Shown in pieces: positions 3,439-33,203 of a DNA stretch of 40,041 nt. The position numbers and the translations under genes were made by a program. The notes beneath the pieces were generated by a model. The model was not told the origin of the DNA and searched no databases. It was given only the letters and a program-made list of their open reading frames with translations. The DNA is from a virus (Duplodnaviria > Heunggongvirae > Uroviricota > Caudoviricetes), in the IMG/VR virus record IMGVR_UViG_2778261296_000006. The stretch is one strand, 5' to 3'. The first letter of the stretch is position 1, and every line of letters starts with the position of its first letter.

Positions 3439-3512
3439 GACTCGCAACTCCCGTATCAGTTTGCTAAAATTAATCACATATTCTCCCTTGCTATCCTCAA
3501 GGTGCAGAAAGT

Positions 3513-3549
3513 AAAAAGCCCCGAAGTGTTAGCGCACCCGGGGCTTTTG
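3513..3549. terminator. bidirectional rho-independent terminator-like hairpin
   Basis: AAAAAGCCCCG...CGGGGCTTTTG: GC stem flanked by an A-run on one side and a T-run on the other, directly downstream of the spike gene stop (3565). Confidence 0.5.
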
Positions 3550-3564
3550 TCTGTTTGGTAGTTT

Positions 3565-4305
3565 TTAATTAGGCGCGGTAGTATTCCCGCTGCCATTCTG
3601 CACACCGCCATGGGTATGCTGGATGAGGCTCTTACCTCCAGCCTTCACATCGTTAGTCACCGTCACCGGCCCAAGCATCGTCGCAGTACCGCCACTTTCG
3701 CCCATTCCCTGAGACAGATTGCCATTAATCGTTACGTTGCCGTTCAGCGTGATAGTCGGGGATGTGATTGTCGTTCCACCTTCAGCCGTAGCCGTGAGCT
3801 GGCCCGGTGTTTGAACGGTGATGTTATGTCCTGCGGCAACCTCTACGAACGCCGCACCATCATCGGTTCGCAGCTGCGCGGCGCTGGTACTGATACCGCT
3901 GATTTTCTGTGCTTGCGACTGCGGGCCAACGATGGCGAACGCATCAGATAAGTCATGCTGTCGCGGATCGACGGTCTCCTGAACGCCGCCGCTCTGCCAC
4001 CAGAAATCGATGCAACGGTCGGCAAAGAGCAGCAGGCACTCGTCGCCTTCTTTAACCGGAAAAGTCAGCGTACAACCGCCGCCACGCGGGAAGATAACCG
4101 GCACATCCACCAGCGGTTTTAATTCGGTGGAGCCATCGCCAACGATACCGCGAAGCGCTACCTCTACCGTGCAGGTAACAGTATCAGGATCGAACGACTG
4201 AATGATGCCGGGCATCGCTACGCGCATCTGGGTAGACACCGAATCGGCAATGGCCTGCGCGGTCTGCTGCTCACCGCCGATCTGTGATTGAGTTGGAATT
4301 GGCAT
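3565..4305 (-). CDS. baseplate central spike protein (gpV / Mu gp45-like)
   Basis: Start taken at ATG 4305 (MPIPTQSQ...), because the longer track ORF would run across the terminator at 4317-4346. Gly/Thr-rich beta-type C-terminus ending in a His-rich tip (IQHTHGG), as in spike apex proteins. Confidence 0.5.
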   Translation of the reverse strand: MPIPTQSQIGGEQQTAQAIADSVSTQMRVAMPGIIQSFDPDTVTCTVEVALRGIVGDGSTELKPLVDVPVIFPRGGGCTLTFPVKEGDECLLLFADRCIDFWWQSGGVQETVDPRQHDLSDAFAIVGPQSQAQKISGISTSAAQLRTDDGAAFVEVAAGHNITVQTPGQLTATAEGGTTITSPTITLNGNVTINGNLSQGMGESGGTATMLGPVTVTNDVKAGGKSLIQHTHGGVQNGSGNTTAPN

Positions 4306-6626: not shown

Positions 6627-7229
6627 TCATCCCCCGAATGCTGATGTAACGCTTCCGCCCAGCTGGCTCAGCAAGGATTCGTTTGGCGGTGTAGTGGATT
6701 TCATCCCGGAATTCTGCACCGCCGATGTGCTGACGCCATCCTGCATATCTGATTTATCTGCAACGCTAACGCTCTGCGTCTGCGACATGATCACTTCACG
6801 CAGGGTAAGCGTGCAGTTCAGCACGTTCTCGCTGGTTTTATCCGTTGTCACCTCGATGGCTCGCACCAGCATATTGCTGTAAACCCGCTTTCCGGTCACT
6901 ACATCGAACGGCACCCGAGAGGACTGGAGATCCAGTAGTTGCTGATAGGTCTCTTTCGGGCTAAGTCCGGCGCTGAGGCCGATTGACGATGTATCAATGA
7001 AGTCCAGCAACGAACCGCCACCTGCGAAGCCGCATTCCATCGTGACTTCGCTGGGGCGCTTATACGCATGATCGGCGATGAAACCCGACGCGCTATTCGT
7101 TGTTGGCTTCTCCACCGGGTGCTCAGTAATTTCTAGCGCATCAGAATGCTTTTCAGAAACAACCACGCTGGGGATTAATATTCCAATTCGCCGGGATTGC
7201 TGGCGAAAAATCGCTGATAAAATATCCAT
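6627..7229 (-). CDS. tail protein (hypothetical)
   Basis: 200-aa ORF immediately downstream of the tape measure gene. Confidence 0.35.
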   Translation of the reverse strand: MDILSAIFRQQSRRIGILIPSVVVSEKHSDALEITEHPVEKPTTNSASGFIADHAYKRPSEVTMECGFAGGGSLLDFIDTSSIGLSAGLSPKETYQQLLDLQSSRVPFDVVTGKRVYSNMLVRAIEVTTDKTSENVLNCTLTLREVIMSQTQSVSVADKSDMQDGVSTSAVQNSGMKSTTPPNESLLSQLGGSVTSAFGG

Positions 7230-22432: not shown

Positions 22433-23043
22433 ACCAGCAGCGCCGCCCGCGCCTTGTTGTATCGGACCTTACGATCCTCAATACCGTTCAGACCGCCGTT
22501 AATGATGCGAGTAACACGATTAATATCGGCACCGTAGATCATGCAGCCTTTAGAGGTGTAGAACCATGCAGCTGAGCGCGCAGCCTGTAGTTCCTGTTCC
22601 AGTTGTTCAGGTGAAGTCACCAAATCTAACTTCAGAGCAGCCCCGCAGGTGCGATAATTGTCGAGGCCAGTGATTTGAATTAACCCTCTGCCGCGATATT
22701 TCCAGCCGTCGCCGGGCGCTTTGTTACCCAGGCGGTTGCTATACACCAGATTGGCAATAGCATCCTGACGAGCTGCATGTCCGGATGTTCTGCCAAGGGC
22801 ATCAGCCTGCTGCTGTGTGATCCTCTTTCCGAACGTCGCCACCAGCGCAGATGGTGTGTAGTTCAAATTTTCAACTACAGCGCTAAAGCCACCAGACTCA
22901 TGACCTACCTGAGCGATGAACATGGCCTGATCCGCGGGTGCTGTAATGCCGAATTCTTTCATCGCTGCATCTACTGGTTGAAACCAGCGCACAGCCAGTC
23001 CGGCGCTGATACCAGCCGCCTTTTGAAATAATTGTTGGTTCAT
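22429..23043 (-). CDS. endolysin (glycoside hydrolase family 19-like lysozyme)
   Basis: 204-aa ORF following two small membrane proteins. Sequence resembles GH19 chitinase-like phage endolysins as I recall them (FIAQVGHESGGF ... GRGLIQITG). Confidence 0.6.
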   Translation of the reverse strand: MNQQLFQKAAGISAGLAVRWFQPVDAAMKEFGITAPADQAMFIAQVGHESGGFSAVVENLNYTPSALVATFGKRITQQQADALGRTSGHAARQDAIANLVYSNRLGNKAPGDGWKYRGRGLIQITGLDNYRTCGAALKLDLVTSPEQLEQELQAARSAAWFYTSKGCMIYGADINRVTRIINGGLNGIEDRKVRYNKARAALLV

Positions 23044-23324
23044 TAGTGCCTCAGATGATCAACCAGGCGTGCAACGTTGCCTCTGACGGCCACCAGCACG
23101 GAAAGAAAAATAGTATTCGCCACGATAATGGGCCATGAGGAATGGGGATAAATCCCACAGAGATAGGCCAACGGAACAGCACTGTATGTAACAGTAATCA
23201 GCCAGGCTAAACGTGAAACCCAAGGACGATGCCGCGAATCACCACGACGATAAAACATCAGAGTAATAACAACACAAGCACATAACAGCGCGTTTATAGT
23301 TGCTGTCGGGTCATTTAGCTCCAC
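23043..23324 (-). CDS. holin-family membrane protein (second lysis membrane protein)
   Basis: 93-aa protein with two or three hydrophobic helices, immediately upstream of the endolysin. Confidence 0.45.
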   Translation of the reverse strand: MELNDPTATINALLCACVVITLMFYRRGDSRHRPWVSRLAWLITVTYSAVPLAYLCGIYPHSSWPIIVANTIFLSVLVAVRGNVARLVDHLRH

Positions 23325-23697
23325 CTGAACCTCCCCGGCGCGTTATGAGCGCCACCAGCGACCCGATATCCTGATTATTCAGGAACGTCAGGATCTTAAC
23401 GGCTAAAGCAGATACGATTACGGCACCAATGGCATCCAGAGGTTTATCACTGTATCCGGTCAAGCTTGCCAGCTTGGAGCCAACCAACCCAGAGCAAAGG
23501 ATCCCGGCAATATACGACACGATAAAATATGCCAGTCGGCGCGATGCGCTCAGATCCGCTGCTGTTGCTATGTAGAATACAGCCCCTGCAAATGCGCCAA
23601 ATACAACGCCGTAATCAGTTCCGGTCAGCAGTCCATAAACACTGGCACCCGTCAGGGCACCACCAGCCAGCCCAGTACCGGAAATTGGATCGGACAT
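23311..23697 (-). CDS. holin (putative)
   Basis: 128-aa Gly/Ala-rich multi-TM protein with a charged C-terminal tail; AAGAGGGGG RBS; first gene of the lysis cassette. Confidence 0.45.
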   Translation of the reverse strand: MSDPISGTGLAGGALTGASVYGLLTGTDYGVVFGAFAGAVFYIATAADLSASRRLAYFIVSYIAGILCSGLVGSKLASLTGYSDKPLDAIGAVIVSALAVKILTFLNNQDIGSLVALITRRGGSGGAK

Positions 23698-23814
23698 TTA
23701 GCCCCCTCTTAATTGCTGTGAGTCCTCTCAGGTATGAGGGGAAATAGGCTCAGGCTTCACGGGTTGGATTTATCAACAAAGCACGTAGCGGATGATTACC
23801 GTGAGCCGGAAATA

Positions 23815-23841
23815 AAAAAGCCCCAGCGGGTGCCGGGGCGA
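23815..23841 (-). terminator. putative rho-independent terminator (minus strand)
   Basis: GCCCC-N10-GGGGC hairpin followed on the minus strand by TTTTTT, downstream of the 24062-24631 gene. Confidence 0.4.
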
Positions 23842-23931
23842 GTTATAGATAAGTGCATGCTCTAGCAGCAAATCACTGTATTTGATATCGTTAAATCGCC
23901 AAAAATAACCCTATCAAACATGGAGAATTAT

Positions 23932-24081
23932 ATGAGTGAATCAAACAAACCATCTGGAGAAAATAAGCCTCAACCCGCACCACAGCCTAAACCGGCTCCA
24001 CAGCCAGCCGAAAGAAATCTGAGGACAGGTTATACCTTTGTTGCCGATTCTGCTGAAAACATCAGAAAAAAAGGTAAGTAA
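23932..24081 (+). CDS. small Pro/Gln-rich ORF (49 aa), doubtful
   Basis: ATG at 23932 with GGAG 7 nt upstream. Low-complexity PQPAPQPKPAPQP. Convergent with, and overlapping, the 3' end of the minus-strand membrane protein gene. Confidence 0.2.
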   Translation: MSESNKPSGENKPQPAPQPKPAPQPAERNLRTGYTFVADSAENIRKKGK

Positions 24082-24631
24082 GTACTGAGATTACAAGTGC
24101 ACAAACAGGGGTGAGGATTGTAGCGATCCTTACCCTTTCTAGTTCTCGGCCTATTCTGGCATTCTCTTTTTTACTAATTTCAGCCATTCTGGTTAAATCC
24201 GCAAGCCGGTAGCGCCGCAAGACGTTCAATGTTGAACGCTTTCCTGAAAATCCTTTCGACTCAAAACCAGTGTAATCATCTTCAGTAAACCCTTTATAGC
24301 CATCATGGTAAAGCGCATAGGGTGTCGATGACACGAGAGCTCGTGACCTTACAACGAGGACGCGGCGAACAAGATAAGCCGCACACATTGCCCAGTAGAC
24401 TAAAAAAACAGACATTCCAGCGGTGAGGTAATCAAAACCTGTACGTTGCGTTAATAACAAAAATGACGAGCCCACGCCAGCAATGAGTATACTCAATAAC
24501 TTCTGGCCATTTTCTTTGTTTAGTGCGTTGGACTGGTGAATTTCGCGTATACAATCCTCGCCCTGCTTCTCCAGAAAAGCAACGAGTTCGTCGTCCGCAT
24601 CCAAAAAGTAATCATCGGGTAGATTATTCAT
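24062..24631 (-). CDS. membrane protein, moron downstream of Q (candidate exclusion/abortive-infection protein)
   Basis: 189 aa with an acidic N-terminus, two central hydrophobic helices and a C-terminal hydrophobic helix. Sits between the PR'/tR'-like region and the lysis genes and is followed by its own terminator. Confidence 0.45.
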   Translation of the reverse strand: MNNLPDDYFLDADDELVAFLEKQGEDCIREIHQSNALNKENGQKLLSILIAGVGSSFLLLTQRTGFDYLTAGMSVFLVYWAMCAAYLVRRVLVVRSRALVSSTPYALYHDGYKGFTEDDYTGFESKGFSGKRSTLNVLRRYRLADLTRMAEISKKENARIGRELERVRIATILTPVCALVISVLTYLFF

Positions 24632-24705
24632 TCCCCAACCTCACATCCTGTAATGCATCAATTTTACCTGAATGTCTCGAACCTTGGTATTGCTGTCTCC
24701 AGAAA

Positions 24706-24738
24706 CGCAAAAACCCCACGGTGTTATCCGCAGGGCTT
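24706..24738 (-). terminator. tR'-like terminator downstream of the late promoter region
   Basis: Minus strand CCCTGCGG-ATAACAC-CGTGGGG hairpin (with G-U pairs) followed by TTTTTGCG, located 100-130 nt downstream of the Q stop. Confidence 0.4.
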
Positions 24739-24834
24739 GAAACGAAGGCATTAACCCATCGTTGGGACAAAATTAACACAGATTCGGGAAAAGTAAATAG
24801 CCCAAGACAAAATCATAGGCTATCGCTATAGGCG

Positions 24835-25617
24835 TTACCGCGTTATCTGCTTAAGCTGTTTTTCGGCCCAGGACTCTTCGATATCAAATTTCGTGATCAG
24901 CAGGTCGTAGAATGGCTTAACAGACTTTTTCCAGGTGTCCAGGCTAATGGCGTCAGTAATCTGGCATACAGCAGCATAGGCTTCAGTCGACGGAAGTCGT
25001 TCATACCCACGCCCTCCGCAGCGCTTACAGTCAGCCAGAACAGGAACGCCCTGTTTCTCAGTAAGAGCCTGGTTCACTGCCTTGCCGCGCCCATGGCAAT
25101 CACTGCAAGAAGCACTAACCACACCAGAGCCATTACACTTTTTGCATAGCACTTTGATGGATTCTTTGACCTTCACCATCCCGGACACGGTCATTTTCCC
25201 TTCTGGCTTACGGAATTTATTGGTAAACACGTCAGCCTCAATGAAGCCCTGACCGTCACAACAATCGCACTGCTTCACGCTGGCAGCGCTGCGGGAATAG
25301 TCCTCAAAAGCGAAGGTGGCCAACTGGTGCATCACCTGAGGTTTAACCGCGGCACCGAGCTTACGCAGTGCGGCAACCTTGTCGCATTTTGTCATCGCGT
25401 ACTCAGCCAGCAGACCGATCGCCCGATCCCGGTCGTTATTGCTTATGCCCATCTTGCCGAGGAAGGCGCTGTAACCCATTGCGGCGCGTTCCTGCGTCAT
25501 GCCCATGGCAGCCATTATGTCGGTACCGGTCAGTGAATCGGAGGCGGTAGCGCGCGGAGAATCGCTAATCAGTGTGGATTTAGCGAAGTGGTATTTCACT
25601 GTGTTTTCAAGGTTCAT
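24835..25617 (-). CDS. late-gene antitermination protein Q-like
   Basis: 260 aa with multiple CxxC zinc-finger pairs (CDCCDGQG, CKKCNGSG, CSDCHGRG, CKRCGGRG). Position between the nin-like genes and the lysis cassette. Confidence 0.6.
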   Translation of the reverse strand: MNLENTVKYHFAKSTLISDSPRATASDSLTGTDIMAAMGMTQERAAMGYSAFLGKMGISNNDRDRAIGLLAEYAMTKCDKVAALRKLGAAVKPQVMHQLATFAFEDYSRSAASVKQCDCCDGQGFIEADVFTNKFRKPEGKMTVSGMVKVKESIKVLCKKCNGSGVVSASCSDCHGRGKAVNQALTEKQGVPVLADCKRCGGRGYERLPSTEAYAAVCQITDAISLDTWKKSVKPFYDLLITKFDIEESWAEKQLKQITR

Positions 25618-25750
25618 AGCGCTTCTCCAGCATAAGTTTTCACGTAATTCTTCAGTATCCGGTAGTCCGTTAGCACAGAGCCGGGAAAGTGGTATAAGCG
25701 AAGCCGCTGCCAGCGAACGCGGAGGTGATCGGAAAAACAGGATTCAAATG

Positions 25751-31370: not shown

Positions 31371-31757
31371 ATGAAAGAGAAAACCGTACTTAATCCGATA
31401 CTTGTCGAACGCCTTTCAGAGCTGAACGGGCGCGGTATGACCAAATCCGATATGGCCAGGGTTGCTGGGGTAACCCCGCAGTCTGTGAACGGCTGGTTTA
31501 AAAAAGGCGTGATCAGCAAGAAATCAGCTCTCGCTGTCGCTGACGCAGCTGGCGTGTCTGTGCCTTGGTTACTCGGTGAGGATGTCGGCGAGAAGGACGG
31601 ACTTAAGCCGGACGAACAGCGCCTGCTTGAGCTCTACCGCCAGCTGCCAGAAGAAGAGCAACAGAACATGCTCCGCATCTTTTCGATACGTCTTAAGGAA
31701 CTGGATGAGCTGTATGAGAAGTACATGAAGGGGCGGATTCGCTCGCAGGGGGACTGA
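31371..31757 (+). CDS. cI-like prophage repressor (HTH; no S24 peptidase domain)
   Basis: 128 aa. N-terminal HTH (MTKSDMARVAGVTPQSVNGWFKKGVISKKSALAVADAAGVSVPWLLGED), then a short helical C-terminal region. Too short to carry a LexA-like autocleavage domain. Divergent from the cro-like gene. Confidence 0.6.
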   Translation: MKEKTVLNPILVERLSELNGRGMTKSDMARVAGVTPQSVNGWFKKGVISKKSALAVADAAGVSVPWLLGEDVGEKDGLKPDEQRLLELYRQLPEEEQQNMLRIFSIRLKELDELYEKYMKGRIRSQGD

Positions 31758-31842
31758 ATCGCTTTAGGTTTGTCCTGAATTTTTAGTTCCCATGAGACAA
31801 TGATGTCTTTACTGGGGGGTGATTCCGCCATTTATGTTAGAT

Positions 31843-31870
31843 TGAAAAAAACTATCAATTTAATTAATAT
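31843..31870 (+). promoter_or_regulatory. sigma70-like promoter of the immunity-region cargo gene
   Basis: TTGAAA (31843-31848), 16-bp spacer, TAATAT (31865-31870), about 28 nt upstream of the cargo ATG. Confidence 0.45.
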
Positions 31871-31898
31871 TTATCACTACTACACGGGATGTTTTGCA

Positions 31899-33203
31899 AT
31901 GACAGCTGAGATTGTTGTAATAAATAATACTGGAATCGCCCTTGCTGCTGACTCTGCAGTCACCACAGAGCATAATAGATTAGTAAAAATAAATAATAGT
32001 GCGGAAAAACTATTCGAACTATCTAAACACCATCCCGTGGGGATCATGATTTATAATAATGCGACACTGGGTGGCGCACCGTGGGAACTTATAATTAAAT
32101 CCTATAGAAAACAATTGGGGAAAACTAGTTTCCCTACCATTAAAGAATATGTTAATGACTTTGTAAAATTCATCAATGGTAACTCAGACCTTATAACAAA
32201 TGAAATGAGAGAGGCTTGCGTTATAAACCTTGTTGTTGATAACCTCAAAGGTTTGATGAGATACATTAATGATAATAATGTAGTAAACTATTTAACAATG
32301 AACCCCGCCGTTGAACTCGACAATGTTATTTTTCAAAACATAGTTAAGCAAGCCTTTGATTTAGAGATAGAAATCTTAAGGAATAATCTCTTTTTCGAAG
32401 GGTTTGATACAGAAGAGTTTAATGATGCTTTAGCATATATACAAGATTTAATATCGCCATACATTTCATCAATTATTGTTCTTGATAACTGTGAAAATAT
32501 ACAGCAAGAGCTTATGGAAAAAGTCATATTATATTCCACTTGTTTAATTTTCAAAGTCCATGCTAGTCGTACATATTCAGGGATTGTTATAACAGGTTAT
32601 GGAGAGGAAGAATATTACCCTTCCATTTGCACTCTTCATATCTACGGCATTTTTAAAAACAAATTGATGATCCATAATATTAATGATAAATCCCATAATA
32701 AGGTAACCAATATGGGGTTTGTTATACCATTTGCTCAAGAAGATGAAGTAGTAACTTTCATTGATGGGTGCAACCCTAACATCATTAATTTTAACAGAAC
32801 TCTTACAGAGGAAGTTTTTGATCGGCTTAATCATTATGTTTCTAGCAATATTTTCCCTGCAATGAACAATGGAGTACTAGCCAATCACTTCTCCAGTGAA
32901 ATTGAGGAACTCAAAAACGTACTTTTACAAGATCACGATACTAAACTTGAAAGCTATATTGTTAATAACCATACAAATAAAATGATATCGATGTTGCAAT
33001 CACTTGGGAAGGCAGATCTTGCGTATATGGCCGAATCATTAGTGAACATCACTGCATTCAAAAGAAAAGTATCACATGATTATGAAACTGTCGGTGGGCC
33101 TGTTGATGTCGCTGTGATATCAAAAGTTGATGGATTTGTTTGGGTAAATCGTAAACACTACTTCCCTAAAGAGCTAAACTCTAACTACTTTAATCGTCAA
33201 TAA
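31899..33203 (+). CDS. AT-rich cargo protein of unknown function; candidate defence protein with Ntn-hydrolase-like N-terminus
   Basis: 434-aa ORF (MTAEIVVINNTGIALAADSAVTT...), strongly AT-rich versus flanking genes. Lies between the repressor gene and OL/PL with its own promoter and terminator. Start chosen at ATG 31899 because the upstream in-frame extension overlaps the promoter. Confidence 0.5.
   Translation: MTAEIVVINNTGIALAADSAVTTEHNRLVKINNSAEKLFELSKHHPVGIMIYNNATLGGAPWELIIKSYRKQLGKTSFPTIKEYVNDFVKFINGNSDLITNEMREACVINLVVDNLKGLMRYINDNNVVNYLTMNPAVELDNVIFQNIVKQAFDLEIEILRNNLFFEGFDTEEFNDALAYIQDLISPYISSIIVLDNCENIQQELMEKVILYSTCLIFKVHASRTYSGIVITGYGEEEYYPSICTLHIYGIFKNKLMIHNINDKSHNKVTNMGFVIPFAQEDEVVTFIDGCNPNIINFNRTLTEEVFDRLNHYVSSNIFPAMNNGVLANHFSSEIEELKNVLLQDHDTKLESYIVNNHTNKMISMLQSLGKADLAYMAESLVNITAFKRKVSHDYETVGGPVDVAVISKVDGFVWVNRKHYFPKELNSNYFNRQ

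Follow-up and report, generated by a model that had tools for sequence, protein, structure and literature searches.

A terminator-insulated two-gene moron cassette in the tR'-holin slot of a lambdoid Escherichia coli prophage, encoding a membrane protein and a convergent small partner

In lambdoid phages, the interval between the late antiterminator gene Q and the holin gene S is a classical site for morons in the sense of Hendrix and Juhala, as exemplified by the stx genes of the Stx phages. Prophages also carry type I toxin-antitoxin modules with convergent, 3'-overlapping transcripts, such as txpA/RatA and bsrG/SR4 in Bacillus, as well as hok/sok-type exclusion modules, and in P22 a prophage defence gene, sieB, is paired with a self-immunity gene, esc. 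In phi80, the Tai/Ati pair joins a prophage defence gene to a small self-immunity gene, and the relative expression of the two shifts at Q-dependent late transcription (PMC11364771). Here we compare with these systems a locus in a 40,041-nucleotide (nt) stretch of Caudoviricetes DNA (IMG/VR record IMGVR_UViG_2778261296_000006; hereafter the window, in which all coordinates are given). The region at ~23820-24700 is a terminator-insulated two-gene moron cassette in the exchangeable slot between the terminator tR' and the holin gene of a lambdoid E. coli prophage. It encodes a membrane protein of 189 amino acids (aa), which we call X189, and a convergent 49-codon open reading frame (ORF), whose product we call s49. 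We tentatively read the cassette as a toxin/antitoxin-like exclusion or abortive-infection module, with a confidence somewhat short of even. Genes in this part of the window lie on the minus strand, s49 excepted. The cassette and its boundaries consist of the following features:

24700-24738, minus strand: tR'-equivalent intrinsic terminator, left boundary of the cassette (terminator scan; stem 24738-24711 plus a T-rich tail)
24062-24631, minus strand: X189, a 189-aa inner-membrane protein with three transmembrane (TM) segments (PHROG 11870, otherwise unnamed)
23932-24081, plus strand: s49, a 49-aa hydrophilic protein rich in Pro, Gln and Lys (PHROG 14506, E 5e-26)
23810-23839, minus strand: second intrinsic terminator, right boundary of the cassette (stem 23839-23820 plus a T6 tail)

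Matches to the flanks of this region come from several phages and 82 E. coli genomes, those to its interior from six genomes only. Homology to related prophages ends just past tR' and restarts within the second terminator; in a pairwise alignment with E. coli KL53, the left junction falls at ~24698, just after the T-run of tR', and the right junction at ~23823, in the 3' arm of the second terminator. Thus, the cargo is a unit bounded by two terminators, as expected of a moron. Between the same flanks, mEp237 carries an unrelated 213-aa gene, HK225 a 136-aa gene on the opposite strand, and KL53 only ~250 bp with no gene. Since related phages have other or almost no cargo at this position, the slot is a moron hot spot, and the cassette has the marks of a moron in being present or absent between the same backbone genes and in having its own downstream terminator. 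A DNA search recovered it from 13 of 5,426 complete E. coli genomes, a rare and patchy distribution.

An earlier reading of this DNA, made from the sequence alone (the original prediction), had proposed a membrane-protein moron with its own terminator at the post-Q site. The homology breaks at the two terminators and the differing cargo of mEp237, HK225 and KL53 bear this out, and the elements it listed (two hairpin terminators, a 189-aa three-helix ORF, a holin gene and an overlapping 49-codon ORF) are all found at the positions it gave. It had, however, described a single membrane-protein gene, and the unit holds a second, convergent and conserved gene; because the 49-codon ORF is an obligatory partner of X189 (see below), we regard the cassette as a two-gene convergent module.

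The layout resembles that of stx-type morons in several respects. Both lie in the slot between pR'-tR' and the holin gene, are flanked by terminators and are present or absent among otherwise similar phages, and both are co-oriented with late transcription, so that Q-dependent read-through would boost their expression upon induction. They differ in that the stx cargo is a secreted toxin, whereas the cargo here is a membrane protein with an antisense-encoded micro-protein, and in that this cassette also occurs in the early/immunity region of other prophages. The Q gene and the pR'-like promoter belong to the backbone and lie outside the cassette. The neighbouring backbone features are:

24835-25617, minus strand: Q-type late antiterminator, 260 aa (PF03589 Antiterm, E 2.2e-45; PHROG 127, E 6e-104)
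24750-24796, minus strand: pR'-like late promoter and sigma70 pause element (aligned with lambda pR')
23311-23697, minus strand: first holin gene of the lysis cassette (Phage_holin_8, PF16931, E 1.4e-34)

The pR'-like element comprises a -35 hexamer TTTACT (24796-24791), a -10 hexamer TTAATT (24776-24771) and the stretch CAACGATGGGTTAAT (24764-24750). Measured against the -35, -10 and pause element of lambda pR', the pause stretch is identical and the hexamers are only related (TTGACT and TAAATT in lambda). The promoter and the hairpin behind it are nearly identical in HK225 and mEp237. This hairpin (11 pairs; free energy, dG, -18.1 kcal/mol; z -2.79) lies ~20 nt past the promoter/pause element, and its counterpart was annotated as a terminator by the authors of HK225; for both reasons we consider it a genuine tR' equivalent, and the description "tR'-like hairpin" in the original prediction was correct. 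The second terminator has a stem of 8 bp, 7 of them GC (dG -17.5 kcal/mol, z -3.75), and is predicted to end X189-sense transcripts and to insulate the holin gene. A terminator is found at this position in most related cassettes, with differing stem sequences, and terminators recur at both ends of related cassettes. A terminator scan of the whole 2.8-kb region gave 6 sites against 3.6 +/- 1.9 in shuffled sequences, which is no excess; the tR' and second hairpins are the strongest sites of that scan, and both are positionally conserved across related loci. Because the terminator comes only ~20 nt after the pause element, the constitutive terminated pR' transcript would be ~60 nt long, compared with 194 nt for lambda 6S RNA, and it has no match in Rfam. 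Short pR'-tR' RNAs of Stx phages act as small regulatory RNAs.

Approximately 90 loci with X189 homologues were fetched, of which 39 distinct sequences contain a full-length homologue. In all 39, the 3' end of the X189 gene is overlapped over 9-35 nt by a convergent ORF that encodes 45-64 aa and has both an ATG start and a Shine-Dalgarno sequence. Such strict genetic linkage is what a toxin-antitoxin module requires. In the window, the overlap is 20 nt and the Shine-Dalgarno sequence GGAG lies at 23922-23925, eight bases upstream of the s49 start. The original prediction was right about the overlapping ORF but treated it as incidental, which does not fit its presence in every distinct locus. 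The partner ORF also accompanies the remote homologues P0139 and P0219 (~27-30% identity to X189), which occupy another part of their prophages. It has been annotated by the NCBI Prokaryotic Genome Annotation Pipeline (PGAP; WP_162842358) and, in Actinobacillus phage pPE4, by the authors of that phage.

The s49 alignment reads MS(E/Q)xNKP...KPQ, followed by a Pro/Gln/Lys-rich spacer and (D/N)(F/L)(S/T/R)xxRxxVGDSA(D/E)xxRKKxK. Its gaps are whole codons only, most differences fall at third codon positions, and the median pairwise ratio of nonsynonymous to synonymous substitution rates (dN/dS) is 0.44 outside the X189 overlap. These alignments indicate that s49 is under purifying selection and that it is a real, conserved and obligatory partner gene of X189. 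The s49 product lacks hydrophobic segments, a signal peptide, a lipobox and cysteine and is predicted to be soluble and largely disordered, with a conserved C-terminal RxxVGDSA(D/E)xxRKK motif. Searches of Pfam, NCBIfam and PADLOC returned only chance-level low-complexity matches for it. An Rz1-like outer-membrane spanin was also considered and rejected, as s49 has no signal peptide, lipobox or cysteine.

It is very unlikely that the s49 ORF encodes no functional protein and owes its conservation to the 3' untranslated region (UTR) of X189, to the terminator region or to an antisense RNA, with X189 acting alone. The product is admittedly short, of low complexity and disordered in composition, a conserved hairpin/palindrome and non-coding blocks are found in the same region, and type I toxin-antitoxin systems are established to share a convergent, 3'-overlapping RNA layout. 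However, the invariably open frame with its start signals, the codon-wise gaps, the variable third positions and the dN/dS value all argue for coding, the RxxVGDSA motif lies outside the X189 ORF, and the PHROG family and the PGAP calls are independent.

One metagenomic prophage relative (L092) carries, at 6700-6780 of its sequence, two direct copies of TTATAAGTTGTGGT(T/A)ACAA upstream of the small partner gene, and a gene of the ribbon-helix-helix family lies just upstream on the same strand. This suggests that in the L092 lineage the small gene may be under a dedicated repressor.

X189 was predicted from the outset to have two central and one C-terminal hydrophobic helix, and both hydropathy, which places TM segments at ~45-62, 70-92 and 168-189, and the AlphaFold model agree with this. 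Acidic side chains prevail in the N-terminal 44 residues (11 D+E, 4 K+R), and residues 93-167 are basic; from this charge distribution, under the positive-inside rule, the protein would be N-in/C-out with both soluble parts in the cytoplasm. The model, built from a 50-sequence alignment, has a mean predicted local distance difference test (pLDDT) score of 82.7 and long helices at 14-62, 68-92 and 134-188, of which the N- and C-terminal ones appear to run on from the membrane into a cytoplasmic helical bundle.

An X189 family of 102 proteins of 160-200 aa, connected by single-linkage BLAST, emerges from a profile search among 1.8 billion representative sequences. Its members have a common architecture and share the motifs FLExQGE, GxGSSF in TM1, PxxLY, RRYRL and a proline in TM3, and every database name given to them is "hypothetical protein". 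Comparison of the family profile with the sequences of solved structures gave only insignificant GpsB-like coiled-coil matches, an alignment-seeded word-index search found no further annotated relatives, and no description of X189 or s49 was found in the literature searched, which included one large supplement. The X189/s49 pair (PHROGs 11870 and 14506) is without annotation in every database searched.

Disrupted copies of X189 occur in three of eight genome hits, all three in species-representative genomes (L009, L010 and L011), through an insertion sequence-type insertion, an in-frame stop with truncation and a frameshift; the small partner ORF is intact in the frameshifted copy. Prophage decay could account for these disruptions, as could selection against a gene that is costly.

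The only meaningful recurring matches in the family, seen in its distant members, are to the PADLOC models of PycTM, the membrane effector of Pycsar (pyrimidine cyclase system for antiphage resistance), and to one "2TM effector" model of CBASS (cyclic oligonucleotide-based antiphage signalling system). Among the weak PADLOC matches of two scanned alignments, 104 sequences in all, those to PycTM models were the best and the most repeated. P0139 shares 27% identity with X189 and fits the profile of its family (E 1.4e-21, residues 3-180); the same protein and PycTM PDLC02364 align almost end to end (E 1.5e-8), and P0139 further matches the 2TM effector model (4e-5). Weaker PycTM matches come from P0136 (0.007-0.011) and P0191 (0.046), and among 50 close relatives of X189 one matches PycTM at 4.8e-4 and another at 0.016. 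Two batches of distant members gave no PycTM match and a third a weak match only; those of P0139 and P0136 came later. Like X189, the PycTM/2TM proteins (PF18967; PADLOC PDLC02363/02364 and PDLC00700) are ~160-190 aa long and have, co-linearly, an N-terminal cytoplasmic helix, a TM hairpin, and a C-terminal helix with a TM segment. Judged from these profiles, X189 is likely to be remotely homologous to the PycTM/2TM effector group.

In contrast to those effectors, the partner of X189 is a convergent hydrophilic protein of 45-64 aa and not a cyclase. No nucleotide cyclase (PycC or a CD-NTase) was found in the cassette, in the annotation of the whole prophage or in seven other annotated neighbourhoods, and for this reason membership of X189 in a Pycsar or CBASS system is ruled out. 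The weak PycTM/2TM similarity without a cyclase in the cassette or prophage, together with the established existence of phage sponges for immune nucleotides, could also fit a counter-defence decoy, that is, a non-toxic PycTM-like protein that sequesters host Pycsar/CBASS nucleotides at the membrane. We consider this highly improbable: X189 has no recognisable nucleotide-binding domain, counter-defence normally acts early, for which the late-operon position and the separate, putative lysogenic promoter would be mistimed, and the obligatory convergent partner would be left unexplained.

The genomic contexts of the cassette bear on its role. In Enterobacterales it lies between a Q-type antiterminator gene and the lysis genes, and X189 points the same way as late transcription in every locus where a neighbouring Q or holin gene was recognised. 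In at least 34 loci, a homologue of the Q protein of the window is encoded upstream at a distance of at most ~1.3 kb; different Q types are found in others, and the holins downstream come from unrelated families (Phage_holin_8/3_7, Phage_holin_3_1 and lambda-S-like). Pasteurellaceae-type relatives carry the two genes in the early region; in one of them the pair, with its own terminator in front, follows a cI-like repressor gene at a distance of a few genes downstream. Since positions vary and holin partners are unrelated, the cassette is better seen as autonomous cargo, spread over prophages of Enterobacterales and Pasteurellaceae, than as a lysis component. Its positions are typical of prophage defence cargo.

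Actinobacillus phage vB_Apl-pPE4 (L099) encodes at 3501-4203 an X189 homologue that is 58% identical, together with the small partner. Its recorded host belongs to the Pasteurellaceae, yet its neighbourhood looks enterobacterial (a Hok-family gene and the same holin pair), and the taxonomy or host of this record may be worth rechecking.

It is distinctly unlikely, in our view, that the cassette serves a lysogenic conversion unrelated to phage-phage conflict, in which X189 would alter host physiology (envelope stress, transport or colonisation) with s49 as regulator or cofactor. The post-Q slot is established as a classical place for host-directed cargo such as Shiga toxin, both proteins are unannotated in databases, and X189 itself has no significant match to a defence model. 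Against this stand the rarity and patchiness of the cassette in E. coli, its spread across two bacterial groups, its occurrence beside cI, a typical position of defence cargo, and the fact that its only recurrent similarity is to abortive-infection effectors.

Three candidate regulatory features of the cassette are conserved:

24661-24666, minus strand: putative cassette promoter, -10-like TAAAAT within CATTCAGGTAAAAT, 29 nt upstream of the X189 start
23883-23891, plus strand: putative extended -10 promoter of s49, TGnTATCGT (conservation across loci)
23879-23920, minus strand: conserved imperfect hairpin/palindrome between the s49 start and the second terminator, in the X189 3' UTR

A TA[AG][AG]AT sequence at a -10-like position upstream of X189 is present in 26 of the 39 distinct loci, among which are the locus of P0139 and the Pasteurellaceae-type relative L092. 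The CATTCAGGTAAAAT element is usually preceded by a terminator; in the window, TAAAAT has no recognisable -35. On the other strand, TG-n-TA(T/C)(C/T/G)GT is kept in most of the 39 s49 upstream regions, inside the conserved block (T/C)TGATATCGTTAAATCGCCAAAAGTAACC. Both promoter-like elements are conserved across cassettes whose proteins are only ~50% identical. The sequence comparisons establish how the locus is built, that its two genes are conserved together, where the cassette ends and that its slot is a hot spot; we infer promoter activity and, in what follows, toxicity of X189, an antitoxin role of s49 and a defence phenotype.

Because the X189-sense terminator follows the whole unit, X189 transcripts would be antisense across the entire s49 gene. 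Conversely, a terminator scan found no terminator-like site in X189 for s49-sense transcription; s49 is convergent and meets no such site, so its transcripts would run antisense into X189. Over 28 sequences, 88% of the cells in the hairpin at 23879-23920 are paired and both sides have changed in five pairs; pairing is slightly better on the X189-sense strand, with 308 paired cells compared with 280 on the opposite strand. The covariation score of this hairpin was reached by none of 500 shuffles and lies above all slid controls, a support obtained only when the structure is specified by hand; RNAalifold predicts no consensus structure in the s49 upstream region, and the energy z is only -1.1. 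The element may be a 3'-UTR structure or an operator.

We favour the exclusion or abortive-infection reading because the cassette is insulated, encodes an effector-like membrane protein, has an obligatory antisense-encoded partner and occupies positions of defence cargo. In the mechanism we propose, both genes would be driven in the lysogen by weak cassette promoters, and the s49 protein, antisense transcription and transcriptional interference would together hold X189 low or inactive, while the downstream terminator would keep the holin gene silent. An incoming phage that shuts off host expression would cause the labile partner to be lost and X189 to be freed; the freed protein would then damage or depolarise the inner membrane, and the infection would be excluded or aborted. 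Upon prophage induction, Q-modified polymerase from pR' would pass tR' and produce sense RNA of X189 but antisense RNA of s49, which would shift the balance towards X189 only late, when lysis is imminent anyway. Such a switch by Q read-through at the end of the lytic cycle would explain the strict co-orientation of X189 with the late operon.

Several observations weigh against this reading. X189 itself has no match in Pfam (E <= 0.1), NCBIfam or PADLOC, and searches with its fold found only generic helical bundles (e.g., BAR domains) and nothing significant in PDB or BFVD. The Pfam PycTM model (PF18967) scores P0139 at 16.1 bits over 40 residues, below its gathering cut-off of 27.2, and TM-rich sequences are prone to spurious profile matches, so that TM composition could inflate the PycTM scores; on these two grounds we rate the homology with PycTM, likely as it is, as unproven. 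Convergence is an unusual layout for protein-antitoxin pairs. Neither X189 nor s49 matched the known superinfection-exclusion or abortive-infection models in Pfam or PADLOC v2. Lastly, a consensus scan found no canonical two-hexamer sigma70 promoter on either strand, so that in this phage Q read-through may be the only way in which X189 is expressed, making it a late gene.

The last point leads to an alternative that we consider unlikely, namely that X189 is a late lysis accessory, made as the first late gene product and almost exclusively from Q-antiterminated pR' transcripts, which would tune lysis timing (for example, through the membrane potential that triggers the holin) or block superinfection during lytic growth, with s49 and its antisense transcription serving only to silence leaky X189 in the lysogen. 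Its location immediately after tR' and before the holin gene, in the orientation of the late operon, would suit such a role, as would the functional closeness of PycTM-like membrane disruption to holin action. Yet neither X189 nor s49 matches a family of holins, antiholins or spanins, whereas both genes downstream match holin families strongly; homology to a lysis component, which would have spoken against the original prediction, was thus not found for X189 in family scans. At least four unrelated holin types accompany the cassette in one locus or another, close relatives that share the backbone lack it, and in distant relatives it lies by a cI-like repressor in the early/immunity region, away from lysis genes. 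It also has its own conserved -10-like element, and a terminator precedes it even outside the Q context. An Rz-like inner-membrane spanin and a holin were likewise considered for X189 and rejected.

Within the exclusion or abortive-infection reading, the nearest conceptual parallels are Tai/Ati and the convergent type I modules, with X189/s49 appearing as a cyclase-less PycTM-like membrane protein and its convergent micro-protein partner. Like the cassette, type I modules are prophage-borne and combine a gene for a membrane-targeted protein with a convergent, 3'-overlapping partner, and a link to phage exclusion through decay of the labile partner is plausible for both. Unlike them, X189 is not a peptide of at most 60 aa but a protein of 189 aa with three TM segments, and s49 is clearly protein-coding and under purifying selection. 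Tai/Ati resembles the proposed module in pairing a lysogen-expressed defence protein with a small counter-acting product, but no sequence relationship exists, as no Pfam family (SieB included) was matched, and in our cassette it is the large protein that would gain from late transcription and the small one that would lose, opposite to Ati.

If a defence or exclusion function holds, the cassette would be a compact addition of ~0.9 kb to the prophage-borne repertoire, PycTM-like membrane effectors would be able to work without a nucleotide-signalling partner, and the locus would offer an experimentally easy case of convergent micro-protein/antisense control of a membrane effector tied to Q antitermination. 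A more specific version, which we regard as speculative and rather improbable, is that X189 descends from PycTM/2TM pore-forming proteins, has lost the cyclase and forms a self-contained prophage immunity switch, set by a convergent micro-protein and an antisense transcript and not by a nucleotide. It would be armed but silent in the lysogen, fire upon host shut-off and be unleashed minutes before lysis through tR'/Q coupling. Controlled in this way, a defence effector would follow a new regulatory logic that combines type I and type II toxin-antitoxin control and is wired into phage development. If X189 were instead a lysis accessory, a new class would be added to the factors that time lysis. 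In this phage group, the interval from tR' to the holin gene is a terminator-bounded exchange slot and a good place to seek more cargo.

Elsewhere in the window, the first holin gene is followed by a second holin-family gene (Phage_holin_3_7, PF05449, E 7e-20), a glycoside hydrolase family 19 endolysin gene (PF00182) and spanin genes, and the lysis genes also match PHROGs 198, 217 and 181. The window contains zero tRNA genes, so that no tRNA cargo is present, and no known RNA family of Rfam was found across 23000-25700. In lambda, rexAB occupies the position just downstream of the repressor gene. In the window, a 467-aa ORF (31800-33203, plus strand) lies directly 3' of, and co-oriented with, a helix-turn-helix repressor-like gene (31371-31757, plus strand) and is named 'hypothetical' in the matching prophage annotation of E. 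coli LR-33. In this rexAB-like position, it is another candidate for a lysogen-expressed cargo or defence gene.

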